Shown: piece after piece, positions 4,584 to 36,830 of the stretch
How the letters are laid out: each line of letters starts with the position of its first letter
How positions within the stretch are numbered: the first letter of the stretch is position 1
Origin: a virus
IMG/VR virus record: IMGVR_UViG_3300030099_005838
Length of the DNA stretch: 64,000 nucleotides
Reading direction: 5' to 3' (one strand)
Made by a program: the position numbers and the translations under genes
The notes under the pieces: model-generated
Databases searched by the model: none
Told to the model about the DNA's origin: nothing
The model's input: only the letters and a program-made list of their open reading frames with translations

Positions 4584-4609
4584 CATTAATGAACAACAAG
4601 GAGATTACT

Positions 4610-7357
4610 ATGAGATATCGTAATCTAATCCTTTCAACAATAATGATGGTTGGAGTTGTCTTTGGACAAGTCGTAACCGGATTTGTTGGTGAAGGTGATA
4701 AACCACTTGTAGGAGCAAATGTTGTAGTAGAAGGTACGACTAAAGGTGGAGTTACCGATAGTGAGGGTAAATTCACTATCGATACTGGTGCTGGTACTTT
4801 TGATATAACAGCATCCTACATTGGATACATAACCCAAACTAAATCTGTTAGTGTTGGGGATATAGTGTCCAGCGTCAGTTTCAACTTAGAAATTGATGTT
4901 GTTGCACTATCGGCTTTAGAGGTTTTGGCTTCTCGAGCTGATGAAAAAACACCTGTTGCTTACACTACGGTGACTAAGGAAGAGATGGAAATTCGTCTTG
5001 GTTCACAAGATATTCCAATGTCTCTGAATATGACACCATCAGTATATGCGACTGGTCAAGGTGGTGGTGCGGGTGATGCTCGTATCAATGTTCGTGGATT
5101 CAACCAAAGAAACGTAGCCGTCATGATAAATGGTGTTCCCCAAAATGATATGGAGAACGGATGGGTGTATTGGTCTAATTGGGATGGGGTAGGAGATGCT
5201 ACCTCTTCAATTCAGATGCAAAGAGGTCTATCAGCCGTTAATCTCGCTACACCATCAATTGGTGGAACGATGAACATAATAACGGATCCTGCCTCTCTTG
5301 AAAAGGGTGGTAAGTTCAAACAAGAAACTGGTAATAACGGTTTCTTAAAAACAACCTTAAATTACAATACAGGTTTGATTGGTGATAAACTAGCATTAAG
5401 TGGAACAATAGTTCGTAAAACTGGTGATGGTTTAATCGATGGAACTTGGACAGATGCATGGGCCTACTATGTTGGTGGTTCATACGCTGTCAGTAATGAC
5501 CAAAGGTTTGAGTTATATGCAATTGGTGCTCCACAGAGACATGGACAGAACCTATACAAACAAAACATAGCTACTTACTCTCAAGAGTTAGCTGGTGATA
5601 TTGATGAGTATGATGTTTCAGCATTTGCAGATAGTGCAAAATTCGAAACTGAAGCTGGTAGGTTCTTCAACCAAAATTGGAACACTATTGATGAATCGTA
5701 CAAAGGCCAACAGTATTGGTATATGTATGGAGAAGGTGGATTATTCGGTGGTGGACTACAAGATCGTAAGATTGGTGGTTTACTGAACGAAAGAGAAAAC
5801 TTCTTTCATAAACCATTAGTCAACCTTAACCATTTCTATGATGTAAATGACCAAGTTAGAATAAGTTCTATCTTGTATTGGTCAGGTGGTTCTGGTGGTG
5901 GTACTGGTACTTACGGAAGTGTATCAAGACAACCCGCAGTTGAGGGCTCACCTTGGTATGCAAGTTCACCTTGGACATGGGATTGGAATGCTGAGATTGC
6001 TCAGAACTCTGCTAATGTAGATTCAACATGGTCAGAAACCGAAAACCGTTCTACAGGTATACTTCGTAATTCAATCAATAGGCAAAATACCTATGGTTTA
6101 ATTTCCAAACTAAACTATGATGTCAACGATGACCTGGAAGTTCAAGTTGGTATTGATTGGAGAACGGCTGGTATTGAACATGCTAGAGAAGTTCGTGATT
6201 TACTCGGTGGAGACTACTATGTAGACTATGCCGATGACAATGCACCAGATGGAAAGAAAGTTGGTTTAGGTGATATCATTGCCTACCATAACAATACTAC
6301 AGTTGATTGGTTCGGTGCTTTCGTACAAGGTAAATACGACATTCAGAAGTTCAACCTTTATGGTATGGGTGGGGTATCCACAATTGGATATTCCTATCAA
6401 GACCATTTTTCTGTTGGGAAGGAACTTGTAGAAGCTCCATCCATTACGACCTTTCAAGTAAAGGGTGGTGGTGTATTTAATCTTGATGATAGATTATCAG
6501 CATTTGCTAATCTTGGGTATGTTCAAAAACCACCAATTTTGGATAACGTGATTGATTATGATGGTAATGTTGCTACCAATCCTGATAATGAGAAGTTCAC
6601 ATCAGCTGAGGTTGGTGGTTCATACAGAAGTGACAAAGTTGCCGTAAAAGGTAGTTACTACAATACACAATGGAAAGATAGAAACCTAACTCGTAATGTG
6701 GAGACAGGTGCTGGTGATTCAGGTGATACTGATATCATTTATCTTACTGGTGTAAACCAAAGTCATACTGGTGTTGAGGTAGAAGCTAAAGTTGCCCTAC
6801 ACGAGATGGTTGATGTAGACTTTGCTTTCAGTAAAGGTAATTGGTTCTTCGATGGAGATGCCAAAGGTGATTACTTAGAACAAGAGTATAATGAAGATGG
6901 TCAGATTATCGGACAGATGACAACCGAATATGTCTATGCTCTTAATAATCTAAAAGTTGGTGATATGCCACAAACTGCTTATGTCGGTGGTCTAACACTA
7001 AAACCAATCAAAGGAATGAACATTCAAGGATTGTTAAAAGTCTATGATGACAATTACGCTGATTGGTCACCAGAATCTCGTGAGGTGACAGGTGATGAGG
7101 ATAGAGCACAAGTTTGGAAAGCTCCTGGCTATTCTAAATTGGACCTACACTTATCATACAAACTTCCAGAGATTGCAGGTTATGATGTGACCTTACATGG
7201 TCATGTCTTTAATGCACTTGATAATATATACGTTCAAGATGCTACAGATAACAGTAAGTACAATGGGTACGGTGATAAACTTCACTTAGCTCATAATGCT
7301 GAAGTATTCTTGGGAACACCAAGATACTACAACATAGGACTTAGTGTTAATTTCTAA
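4610..7357 (+). CDS. TonB-dependent outer-membrane receptor (CarboxypepD-reg-like N-domain, plug, beta-barrel)
   Basis: Signal peptide; motifs PLVGANVVVEGT...DSEGKF, NVRGF, VMINGVP and IQMQRG; C-terminal GLSVNF; SD AAGGAG before ATG 4610. Confidence 0.9.
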   Translation: MRYRNLILSTIMMVGVVFGQVVTGFVGEGDKPLVGANVVVEGTTKGGVTDSEGKFTIDTGAGTFDITASYIGYITQTKSVSVGDIVSSVSFNLEIDVVALSALEVLASRADEKTPVAYTTVTKEEMEIRLGSQDIPMSLNMTPSVYATGQGGGAGDARINVRGFNQRNVAVMINGVPQNDMENGWVYWSNWDGVGDATSSIQMQRGLSAVNLATPSIGGTMNIITDPASLEKGGKFKQETGNNGFLKTTLNYNTGLIGDKLALSGTIVRKTGDGLIDGTWTDAWAYYVGGSYAVSNDQRFELYAIGAPQRHGQNLYKQNIATYSQELAGDIDEYDVSAFADSAKFETEAGRFFNQNWNTIDESYKGQQYWYMYGEGGLFGGGLQDRKIGGLLNERENFFHKPLVNLNHFYDVNDQVRISSILYWSGGSGGGTGTYGSVSRQPAVEGSPWYASSPWTWDWNAEIAQNSANVDSTWSETENRSTGILRNSINRQNTYGLISKLNYDVNDDLEVQVGIDWRTAGIEHAREVRDLLGGDYYVDYADDNAPDGKKVGLGDIIAYHNNTTVDWFGAFVQGKYDIQKFNLYGMGGVSTIGYSYQDHFSVGKELVEAPSITTFQVKGGGVFNLDDRLSAFANLGYVQKPPILDNVIDYDGNVATNPDNEKFTSAEVGGSYRSDKVAVKGSYYNTQWKDRNLTRNVETGAGDSGDTDIIYLTGVNQSHTGVEVEAKVALHEMVDVDFAFSKGNWFFDGDAKGDYLEQEYNEDGQIIGQMTTEYVYALNNLKVGDMPQTAYVGGLTLKPIKGMNIQGLLKVYDDNYADWSPESREVTGDEDRAQVWKAPGYSKLDLHLSYKLPEIAGYDVTLHGHVFNALDNIYVQDATDNSKYNGYGDKLHLAHNAEVFLGTPRYYNIGLSVNF

Positions 7358-34961: not shown

Positions 34962-35267
34962 GTGAGAGAAAGAATGTTATTGAATATACTGCTTAGTTCG
35001 TTATTATTCATCACCAAAGAACCCGAGGTTATCAAACCCATTGAGATTAAACCCGATGATGTGAGCCCATCCCAAATCGGTTTAGCCATAGTGGAGTTTG
35101 TAATAGATAAGCAGGGTGAGGTCGGTGAGGTTTTAATCATAGATACATTTGATTTGAAGATAATCCCCCTATTGGAAGAAGCTGTTCGAAGGATGGAGTT
35201 CGAACCAGGTATGCAGAATGGTAGGCCTGTAGAGGTGAGGTATAGGTTGCCAATAGAATTCAAATAG
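34962..35267 (+). CDS. tonB: TonB C-terminal domain (energy transducer) protein
   Basis: VEFVIDKQGEV...EAVRRMEFEPGMQNGRPVEVRYRLPIEF. Confidence 0.75.
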   Translation: MRERMLLNILLSSLLFITKEPEVIKPIEIKPDDVSPSQIGLAIVEFVIDKQGEVGEVLIIDTFDLKIIPLLEEAVRRMEFEPGMQNGRPVEVRYRLPIEFK

Positions 35268-35361: not shown

Positions 35362-35670
35362 TATCACCCCATTACACTACTTATATATAAGAAGGTTACA
35401 TTGGATTCAGAACCAATGGAGAGAGCCCATCGAAACCATATTAGTGCTTTTACTCATTTTATTACCATTGGCCTACCTATGGTGGAAGGAATCCTAACCG
35501 AAATCCCCTTTGACACACCTTAACCCATTCTTACCCACTTTTTGACACTATCACCTATTTATTATTAGAAGATATTGGTTATTATATACTACGTGTATGT
35601 CTTTATGACATATTTTTTTAGCCAAGCATTTTAATAAACTGTGTGTGTCATATTGTCAGGAGGTGATGAG

Positions 35671-36186
35671 ATGCCGAAGAACTTAAGCAAGGATAGGATG
35701 GTTTGGGCCATTAATGAGACTACTTCTATGAGGCAAGCGGCTGTGTTATTAGGGGTAGCCTATAATACTTTTAAAAAGTATGCTAAGATGTATGAGCTGT
35801 GGAAACCCAATATGGATGGGCCTAGAGCTAAAAGTGGTCTTCCACGTGGCTTTAAGCCGGTGGAGATAGCCGATATACTCTCCGGTAAGAACCCCGATTA
35901 CTCCACAGCTAAGTTACAGTATAGGTTGGTTCGGGAGGGTTATCTGGAGGAGTGTTGTAGCAACTGTGGATATGATGAATACCGGCCGGCTGATATGACC
36001 AAGCCACTCCAATTAGACTATCTGGATGATGATTCTACCAATAAGGAATTTAGTAATCTCCGATTATTATGCTATAACTGTTATTATCTACTGAAATTGA
36101 ACCGAAATGAGCCCGCTGTACCCTCGAATGTGAAGACTTTTACCGAAGCAATTAACAAAGCCTTCTCCACCGACCCAACTGAGTAG
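35671..36186 (+). CDS. HTH plus degenerate HNH-like Zn-binding protein
   Basis: SMRQAAVLLGVAYNTFKKYA helix-turn-helix; CSNC...LQLDYLDDD..N...NLRLLCYNCY; SD GGAGGTG. Confidence 0.65.
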   Translation: MPKNLSKDRMVWAINETTSMRQAAVLLGVAYNTFKKYAKMYELWKPNMDGPRAKSGLPRGFKPVEIADILSGKNPDYSTAKLQYRLVREGYLEECCSNCGYDEYRPADMTKPLQLDYLDDDSTNKEFSNLRLLCYNCYYLLKLNRNEPAVPSNVKTFTEAINKAFSTDPTE

Positions 36187-36210: not shown

Positions 36211-36240
36211 AGCTTAACGCATTTTTGCCATATAAGTCAA
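36211..36240 (-). promoter_or_regulatory. minus-strand promoter TTGACT-N18-TAAGCT
   Basis: Reverse complement reads gaaaagacTTGACT...TAAGCTtagggg, with the same flanks as the + strand copies. Confidence 0.5.
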
Positions 36241-36334
36241 GTCTTTTCTTCAAAAAACCCTATATTTTATGCGGCGTATCGACTGCACGCGGCTAATTAA
36301 TTGAAAAAAAATGAAAAAAAAGTGAAAAAAACCC

Positions 36335-36363
36335 TTGACTTTTAGCTTATTTCTTCGTAGCTT
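36335..36363 (+). promoter_or_regulatory. early promoter TTGACT-N17-TAGCTT
   Basis: Consensus match with an A-rich UP element. Confidence 0.7.
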
Positions 36364-36369
36364 AAGGGG

Positions 36370-36587
36370 TAATGATTAAGGAAATGATAATGAATTAGTG
36401 AGAAAAGATTTAAAGAGAACACTTTGGCTAAGACTTAATCTCTTCGCAGTGTTCTCTGAGTGGGGCTAGGGTTAAGAGCCACTGCCTGTCATTTTGTCTG
36501 ACATCTGGCGCCCCAAAGATTTACTTGTGTTGTTGGTTAGGTGTGGCTGAGAGGTTTCCTCCTTATTCCCTCTCAGCCACTTTTTTT
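36370..36587 (+). ncRNA. putative structured small RNA (~215 nt)
   Basis: Lies between a promoter and a terminator; longest ORF seen at its 5' end is 8 codons; stems at 36414-23/36448-57 and 36461-66/36510-15. Confidence 0.5.
36543..36587 (+). terminator. intrinsic terminator with 12-bp stem and CCTCCTTA-containing loop
   Basis: GTGGCTGAGAGG/CCTCTCAGCCAC followed by T7. Confidence 0.85.
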
Positions 36588-36629
36588 ATTAACTCGGTTA
36601 GCTAAAATATATTTTGCTACGCAAACCTA

Positions 36630-36638
36630 ATATTTATA
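36630..36638 (+). promoter_or_regulatory. putative late-promoter motif ATATTTATA
   Basis: 3 nt before ATG 36642 (would give a leaderless mRNA). Confidence 0.45.
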
Positions 36639-36641
36639 TAT

Positions 36642-36830
36642 ATGAAAGACTTTAAACGATTACAGACACTTATCAACCAGATGGAGACGGACCTCATCAT
36701 GCTCTATCAGAGCGGGGAGGTGCTTGAGTTCATGGAAGAGGACCCCGAGTACATAGCAGTATCGATGGTTAGTCTAATACTGGATAGGGAGCACTTCCTA
36801 CAGCTAGGTATGGTGGTGGGGGAGGCATGA
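36642..36830 (+). CDS. hypothetical protein
   Basis: ORF track. Confidence 0.5.
   Translation: MKDFKRLQTLINQMETDLIMLYQSGEVLEFMEEDPEYIAVSMVSLILDREHFLQLGMVVGEA

Follow-up and report, generated by a model that had tools for sequence, protein, structure and literature searches.

The locus described here yields a short RNA fold that sequence comparison supports very strongly, present in two strand orders and in many settings among uncultured marine phages. It was analyzed in a 64,000-nucleotide (nt) stretch of viral DNA (IMG/VR virus record IMGVR_UViG_3300030099_005838), the whole of which is called the window below, at positions 36335–36587. The fold, referred to as the module, occupies 36461–36515 and lies inside an RNA gene that is housed in the 455-nt gap between a gene for a 181-amino-acid (aa) protein and a gene for a 62-aa protein. 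With regard to function, we tentatively favor, at somewhat less than even confidence, the view that these positions form a self-contained non-coding transcription unit whose module would act in trans by binding one conserved partner. That the unit is transcribed, what the partner would be and which effect the module would have are points that we infer.

Structure, covariation, and distribution of the module

The relatives used for comparison (L-numbered loci) are uncultured IMG/VR relatives gathered via neighboring proteins and exact DNA patterns. When the RNA was compared by BLAST with the fetched loci, a stretch of 22–27 nt proved to be conserved even in distant relatives. The module around it exists in two forms. 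Type A, the form of the window, has the order P1(5′)-CUAGGGUUAAGAGCCACUG-NN-P3 hairpin-N-CUGGAG-P1(3′), and type B has the order P3(5′)-N-CUGGAG-P1 hairpin (often with a GNRA or UUCG loop)-CUAGGGUUAAGAGCCACUG-NN-P3(3′); the two are thus circular permutations of one architecture. In both, a mini-hairpin, P2 (GGUU-NAG-AGCC), forms within the long strand.

The pairing of these helices is supported by extensive covariation. Among 53 distinct copies, canonical pairs make up 168 of 169 at the four junction-proximal positions of P1 and 44–52 of 53 at each of those of P3, and four to six pair types are seen per position in these helices. At the P2 pair G6-C14, where the search pattern admitted all four base combinations, the same copies hold 36 G-C, 16 A-U and one G-U pair, with no mismatch; in the metagenome set, 97 verified copies hold 64 G-C and 33 A-U pairs and likewise no mismatch, A-C combinations being confined to 19 context-free metagenome hits. 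Covariance models (CMs) were built from the type A and type B alignments, which are 96.6% and 93.4% paired, respectively, with covariation values of 0.589 and 0.600 against 0.194 and 0.195 in shuffles (0/500 in each case), and a shift of the pairing partners against each other by one to three columns lowers pairing to 29–59% in both types. Moreover, U7-G13 is invariant, and the junction-proximal pairs of P1 and P3 include G-U and no A-C, a combination that places the fold on the transcribed strand, which is the gene strand of the window. There, CM R1 finds a single copy at 67.1 bits (E = 1e-15), coinciding with what the original prediction had described as a second domain of the RNA. On the basis of these comparisons, it is the module fold and about 25 junction nucleotides that are under strong selection, and its embedding, strand order, and neighbors that are free to vary.

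The exact 17-mer CTAGGGTTAAGAGCCAC is present in 32 IMG/VR contigs, and the degenerate core CTARGRTTNAGAGYCACYG has matches in 76 contigs of IMG/VR and in at least 120 from metagenomes, the names of which are mostly marine; among the matches listed, 97 of 117 distinct metagenome copies pass the strict helix rules. A search of 185,579 genomes of bacteria and archaea gave nine matches to the same exact 17-mer; of these matches, eight come without any other motif feature and are assigned to chance, the ninth being a phage contig binned in a metagenome-assembled genome. The core is missing from all 50,697 phage genomes on deposit, and when type B copies were compared with these by BLAST, the only matches were chance ones in tail genes of Staphylococcus phages (E = 1). 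The core is almost invariant among phages that show 25–57% identity in their proteins. Judged by these counts, the module is a phage-specific RNA family, practically absent from cellular genomes at the exact-core level.

This family was not recognized in any catalog that we searched. Rfam 15 gave no match to the window at the gathering score and, at E ≤ 1–10, nothing relevant on the window region, on the type B loci L056 and L061, or on L001, L004, L016, L017, L019, and L113, the families without a match including ykkC, YrlA, abiF, hammerhead, twister, pistol, hatchet, GOLLD, ROOL, and IMES. The best Rfam match, to L20_leader, reaches 21.9 bits where the cut-off is 58.7, and it is the terminator that drives it. 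Apparent likenesses to ykkC (CUAGGGUUCCG), to RNase P CR-III (GGUAAGAGC), and to 16S helices found no support in covariance models and are deemed coincidence. In 8.4 million full texts, the core string was met only as chance primer matches, and a topical literature search returned no description of the motif. As far as the resources searched go, the module is therefore an uncatalogued RNA family, an unpublished or unindexed description being possible; this newness concerns the RNA family only, not any mechanism.

The settings of the module are diverse. L014 (75% identical) and L015/L016 (66%) carry a homologous RNA unit with two module copies, and L001, L017, L105, L113, L118, L004, and L126 carry longer RNAs (~300–500 nt) at an equal or similar location, which share the module and a spacer, AAAGA(A/U)UUA, several of them also a T-arm-like GGGGUUCGAAUCCCC. 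No flanking protein family exceeds 21 of 86 module loci. In about 20 loci, the module is found between a gp32-type single-stranded DNA-binding protein gene and a RecA/UvsX gene, 45–70 nt ahead of the start of the latter. These gp32–RecA phages are related to the window phage, and in them the 5′–3′ exonuclease encoded after RecA is 57% identical to the product of the window's first gene; the window phage's own gp32–RecA spacer, if existing, would lie just upstream of the window. Elsewhere, the module stands 45–75 nt downstream of consensus TTGACA-N17-TATAAT promoters and 16–35 nt before small acidic early genes; it forms tandem arrays of two or three units, with a 48–49-nt period, directly after a consensus promoter (L056, L107, and L112); it belongs to multi-module RNAs that lie beside tRNA-like T-arms; and it adjoins the ends of tRNA-like RNAs in L096, L099, L129, and L004. 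By pattern, a single copy is present in each of four large contigs and none in a fifth, the contig of L077, one of the four, having an additional near-core variant copy beyond its pattern copy. The strand co-orientation of the module with neighboring long open reading frames (ORFs) was a crude test, too noisy to use.

Several further RNA features were observed near module copies. A second conserved loop, UUCCUGGCGAUAGAGUU, caps P3 in L004:1765–1795, L126, L078:2505–2530(−), and L123:10770–10800, and likewise caps the 3′ hairpin of the L001 RNA (L001:2395–2425), while AUAGAG recurs in the P3 loops of the gp32–RecA module copies. Tandem arrays in unrelated contigs are followed by a conserved RNA-like segment, ACAAAGGGUUGAAACCCGCAAG...AAGUCGC.AGCAUAGUU (L107:1–110(−), L077:8605–8700, and L242). 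The larger RNAs of relatives (L004:1810–1990, L017:3385–3560, L105:2030–2210, L113:390–570, and L099:1270–1470(−)) have covarying stems (for example, CGUAGU/ACUACG vs. CUGACC/GGUCAG) along with the T-arm-like element, the module lying directly 5′ or 3′ of them. A reading of these larger RNAs as tRNA-like or transfer-messenger RNA (tmRNA)-like (GGGGCUGA... with the T-arm-like element) was discarded, since acceptor pairing is lacking and neither ARAGORN nor Rfam supports it; the tRNA/tmRNA search was negative for the window and for nine related loci, its one find being an ordinary tRNA-Cys in another part of L001.

The RNA gene and its surroundings

The promoter, stem, second domain, terminator, and terminator loop listed by the original prediction were all recovered where it had placed them (table 1). 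The promoter, TTGACT and TAGCTT separated by 17 nt, is a member of a family, A-tract-CTTGACT-N17-(G)TAGCTT, with about 11 copies in the window, mostly ~20 nt ahead of a Shine–Dalgarno sequence (SD) and a start codon, and hence is no chance match; with up to three mismatches, the 15-mer AAAAACCCTTGACTT has 15 matches in the window for 3.8 expected. Transcription is predicted to start near 36368–36371, and its timing would probably be early. The leader that follows carries an SD-like sequence and a short start-stop frame, and a two- to four-codon AUG-NNN-stop is likewise found at the 5′ end in eight of the nine relatives read (L012, L014, L015, L001, L078, L113, L118, and L123), the ninth, L017, having an eight-codon frame in its place. 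In L012:2590–2800 (aligned to window 36320), a second, near-identical promoter–leader cassette with a small ORF lies immediately upstream of the RNA gene, the cassette thus acting like a mobile or duplicating unit. On the minus strand of the window, at 36234–36248, a copy of the promoter −35 region (GAAAAGACTTGACTT) points in the direction opposite to the RNA promoter; transcripts started from it would be antisense to the 181-aa gene.

Table 1. Coordinates of the RNA gene, of its parts, and of the two flanking genes in the window.
Feature	Position	Strand	Details
181-aa gene upstream of the RNA	35641-36186	+	weak helix-turn-helix (HTH) match and Cys-rich HNH-like C-terminal half
Promoter	36303-36363	+	phased A-tracts; -35 TTGACT 36335-36340; 17-nt spacer; -10 TAGCTT 36358-36363
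Leader	36378-36398	+	SD-like AAGGAA; five-codon start-stop frame ATG ATA ATG AAT TAG 36384-36398
Hairpin 1	36414-36457	+	10-bp outer stem and inner 4-bp stem, 7-nt loop
Conserved module, type A	36461-36515	+	CM and covariation
P1 of the module	36461-65/36511-15	+	
Core CUAGGGUUAAGAGCCACUG	36466-84	+	includes P2 mini-hairpin GGUU-AAG-AGCC 36470-80
P3 of the module	36487-91/36499-503	+	7-nt loop
CUGGCG of the module	36505-10	+	
Single-stranded spacer	36515-36542	+	starts with AAAGAUUUAC
Intrinsic terminator	36543-36587	+	stem 36543-36554/36569-36580 (12 bp); loop 36555-36568; T7 run 36581-36587
Conserved 62-aa gene downstream of the RNA	36642-36830	+	without SD

The roughly 215 nt that follow the promoter, described beforehand as lacking a convincing ORF, hold no conserved one. 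Over the RNA, L012 is 94% identical to the window, and its 2-nt and 1-nt indels in the body break the three small ORFs (23, 26, and 29 aa), which in L014 are replaced; a coding reading was rejected on this account, and the RNA is taken as non-coding. A GGAGG on the minus strand was considered as an SD and dismissed, no start codon following it. The announced 10-bp stem folds as hairpin 1 at −17.2 kcal/mol (z = −4.4) and occupies the site where L014 and L016 hold their first module copy; the window and L113 agree fully in the apical sequence of this hairpin, from which L012 departs by a single base (A to G). The AAAGA(A/U)UUA spacer stands between structured modules at 36405–36413 and 36515–36524 of the window, and also in L113, L118, L078, and L017; it fits the RNase E preference, RN|WUU, and may mark processing sites.

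The terminator folds at −22.8 kcal/mol (z = −6.2), a value equaled by 0 of 200 shuffles, and has the G+C-rich stem (12 bp) directly before a U-tract (U7) of a Rho-independent terminator. The loop of such terminators usually counts 3–8 nt, and a general terminator scan did not list this one because its loop of 14 nt exceeds that range. With a family promoter, a strong terminator, no conserved ORF, and folded domains conserved with covariation, the locus supports the stand-alone small RNA gene that had been proposed.

The window as a whole is phage-like, with 33% G+C and nearly all genes on the plus strand, and the family B DNA polymerase of the window phage is at best 46.5% identical to those of deposited phages, against which nucleotide BLAST of the locus and of the surrounding 15 kb gave no match. 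As to the upstream gene, the HTH_psq match of its product is below the cut-off, and 41 loci with homologs of this 181-aa protein were collected, in few of which CM searches place the module. A tie between the module and this HTH/HNH-like gene was accordingly abandoned: the 36 more distant of the 41 loci (L018–L053) have no CM copy, except for a partial one in L019, and the gene thus appears to adjoin the RNA as lineage synteny only. Directly before the SD-less start of the 62-aa gene, at window 36596–36641, lies an A/T-rich near-palindrome, UAGCUAAAAUAUAUUUUGCUA, with a TATTTATA-like element; both are kept in L001, L017, L078, and L123 and may be a candidate late promoter or operator. More remotely, window 34962–35267 encodes a short TonB C-terminal-domain protein and 4589–7357 a SusC-like TonB-dependent receptor (CarboxypepD_reg and Plug domains), and the TonB_C gene is found alongside gp32–module–RecA loci too.

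What the module may do

The unit consists, in this order, of a promoter, a short leader whose start-stop mini-ORF is regarded as vestigial, hairpin 1, the three-helix module, a spacer, and an intrinsic terminator. In the reading that we favor, the selected, functional part would be the module, with its two covarying helices around the core and CUGGAG. The module would be a compact, pre-folded RNA for a single conserved partner, for which a protein or machine of the host or a conserved phage protein is the likeliest candidate, and on which it may act in trans as a decoy, an inhibitor, or a handle. What would count is its early and abundant production from strong, probably early promoters, and this would explain why the module is embedded in stand-alone RNAs, 5′ leaders, intergenic regions, and tandem arrays, and in either strand order. 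The circular permutations, the tandem arrays after promoters, the lack of a fixed neighbor, and the near-invariant core all fit a trans-acting module.

Several observations nonetheless weigh against this reading. The pattern scans fixed most core positions, so that the invariance of the core is overstated by construction. In L078, L123, and many other phages, the module lies in a 5′ leader, with which a role in cis is equally compatible. TROVE/Ro60 (PF05731) and TerD (PF02342) are absent from the contigs of five relatives, which are 26–73% complete. At 14 nt, the terminator loop is unusually large, and the window shares the loop flanks, UUU...UUAUUC, with L016, which suggests that the loop may have a function of its own. 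Finally, the phage that carries the unit is an uncultured marine phage, and its host is uncultured too.

Somewhat less probable, though to be taken seriously, is that the module represents an unrecognized small catalytic RNA class or a natural aptamer that would disable a conserved host factor; candidates for such a factor, proposed with the same reserve, may be a defense nuclease, an RNase, RNA polymerase, or the ribosome. In an unlikely but substantial alternative, the module would cut phage transcripts at defined places, either as a small self-cleaving ribozyme of a new class or as an obligatory site of RNase processing, and would in this way free modules from multi-domain RNAs, split gp32 from RecA/UvsX messages, and trim the 5′ leaders of early genes. 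Hammerhead and twister ribozymes combine a compact junction, circular permutation, and tandem copies. The module resembles them in its compact multi-helix junction with about 25 near-invariant nucleotides, its natural circular permutation and tandem copies, its enrichment in phage intergenic regions with unrelated neighbors, and its position directly beside the ends of tRNA-like RNAs in the four loci mentioned above. Yet short inputs of both module topologies match no ribozyme model of Rfam 15, even at E ≤ 10, no cleavage-site signature is readable in the sequence, and the module is practically absent from cellular genomes, where known ribozyme classes occur as well.

A role in cis appears rather improbable. 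Here, the stretch would be the regulatory leader of the 62-aa gene, its module sensing a ligand or a protein or serving as a put-type polymerase-modifying element, and the terminal hairpin with U7 would be an attenuator under the control of the module. The succession of promoter, structured element, terminator, and gene is indeed the classical layout of an attenuator, the 62-aa gene of L078 and L123 has the module directly within its 5′ leader, and the short distances to RecA/UvsX and early-gene starts noted above point in the same direction. Furthermore, the 5′ strand of the terminator (GUGGCU) can pair with AGCCAC of the core, albeit as a weak 6-bp alternative. However, no alternative pairing is conserved in relatives, the hairpin of L015/L016 comes without a U-tract, and the SDs of downstream genes lie outside the module, these genes (for RecA/UvsX, small acidic proteins, and the 62-aa protein) being functionally unrelated. 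Tandem arrays heading non-coding RNAs are moreover ill-suited to a sensor. To our knowledge, every riboswitch class has bacterial representatives, whereas the module has practically no bacterial copies and no conserved expression platform.

The mechanism advanced by the original prediction, in which the terminator loop displays the 3′ end of 16S rRNA, titrates AAGGAGG sites, and thereby shuts off or reprograms translation, is very improbable in the light of the relatives. The terminator of 12 bp does carry, as described, a 14-nt loop, UUUCCUCCUUAUUC, with CCTCCTTA at 36558–36565; this loop is unpaired in both the minimum free energy and centroid folds and is thus exposed, it is unusually long for a terminator, and CCUCCUUA is exact. 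CCTCCTTA has its sole copy in the window here, but 2.0 copies are expected per 64 kb, which makes the occurrence unsurprising. We compared the loop across eight distinct syntenic loci, each with the module ahead of the 62-aa gene. Its sequence varies among them, an outcome that the prediction itself had named as refuting and that leaves the mechanism unsupported. CCUCC is exposed in the window, L012, and L014 only, whose terminators are essentially identical (a single C-to-U change in L014 produces a G-U pair). The next relatives, L015/L016, have the homologous hairpin with the loop UUUGGUUAUUC (UUU-GG-UUAUUC), that is, the same flanks minus CCUCC, a GAGA/UCUC segment being deleted from both strands of the stem as a compensated indel. 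In L017 and L105, CCUCC is base-paired in the 3′ strand of a G/C stem, and L078 and L123 have neither CCUCC nor a terminator hairpin.

In a search that covered the phage window only, extended targets of the loop (GAATAAGGAGGAAA, up to three mismatches) numbered 15 for 17.2 expected, a complementarity no better than chance. The gene strand of the window holds no AAGGAGG, so that phage messages would escape; however, the 64 kb hold a single occurrence of the motif, on the strand opposite the terminator loop that it complements, where 7.7 would be expected, and a scarcity affecting both strands looks compositional. For the record, the SDs of the window phage are of the AAGGA or AAAGGGAA type. A single small RNA (sRNA) species would, in addition, presumably face competition from the anti-SD that each ribosome carries. 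If true, the idea would mean a phage RNA attacking translation initiation globally, but the comparative evidence argues against it. The anti-SD-like loop would rather be a recent, lineage-restricted feature of a terminator that probably does nothing beyond ending the transcript, although we keep a small probability for a lineage-specific role, terminator loops of 11–14 nt with shared flanks being unusual.

Lastly, a DNA-level element (origin, packaging, or protein-binding site) in a region of low coding content, which the almost invariant 17–19-nt core could evoke, is hardly credible given helices that covary with many pair types, a strand-specific fold (G-U present and A-C absent), and unrelated genomic contexts that include 5′ leaders and tandem arrays right behind promoters.

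Comparison with known systems

The unit shares features with several known RNAs and coincides with none of them. Like sRNAs with C-rich loops, such as S. aureus RNAIII and those of the RsaE/RoxS type, it is a small terminator-ended RNA with an exposed, pyrimidine-rich, SD-complementary loop; in these sRNAs the C-rich motif is conserved, whereas here it is seen in three of eight syntenic relatives, sits within a terminator loop, and has no targets that we could find. Closer in architecture are hammerhead types I–III and twister P1/P3/P5, which likewise have an invariant-core junction, two strand orders, tandem copies, phage intergenic locations, and no fixed neighbor. The module differs from them in its unrelated core, in the lack of an Rfam ribozyme match, and in its near absence from cellular genomes, catalysis being putative here.

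A repeated small structured unit, sometimes arrayed behind a strong promoter, is also found in CsrB/RsmZ, in the Y RNA/YrlA–Ro60 system, in ToxI, and in the phage "pseudo-ToxI" mimic (PMC3475682). The module is, however, devoid of the GGA-loop motif of CsrB/RsmZ. With YrlA it has in common that it is joined to tRNA-like domains in relatives, but the YrlA model RF02553 gives no match and neither Ro60/TROVE nor TerD was found in the five relatives' contigs, 26–73% complete, which does not suggest a Y RNA/YrlA-type ribonucleoprotein. In contrast to ToxI-type RNAs, it does not lie next to a toxin gene, lacks copies in bacteria, and is not matched by the Rfam model of abiF; with regard to a type III toxin–antitoxin reading, a bacterial counterpart of the core is absent at the exact-core level, divergent host versions not having been searched.

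Among phage RNAs, rnaC and rnaD of phage T4 and orphan phage ncRNAs (non-coding RNAs) are alike in being small, stable-looking RNAs beside tRNA-like structures, which here are met in relatives. The T4 RNAs lie in a tRNA cluster and are processed like tRNAs, whereas the unit of the window has its own promoter and terminator, and no sequence relationship is known. The put RNA of HK022 is, like the module, a short two-helix RNA just past early promoters, and a partner as conserved as the RNA polymerase would explain the extreme conservation of the core; on the other hand, there is no sequence similarity, the module of the window precedes a strong terminator that seems to close the unit, and put is not known to occur in tandem arrays or in permuted form. 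Motifs with a signature such as that of the module have earlier proved to be ribozymes, riboswitches, or protein-capturing RNAs. If the catalytic or aptamer reading were true, the module would be a new phage-specific class of functional RNA, abundant in the ocean, and its minimal type B form of ~50 nt (a 46–50-nt construct) would make it amenable to study without phage cultivation.

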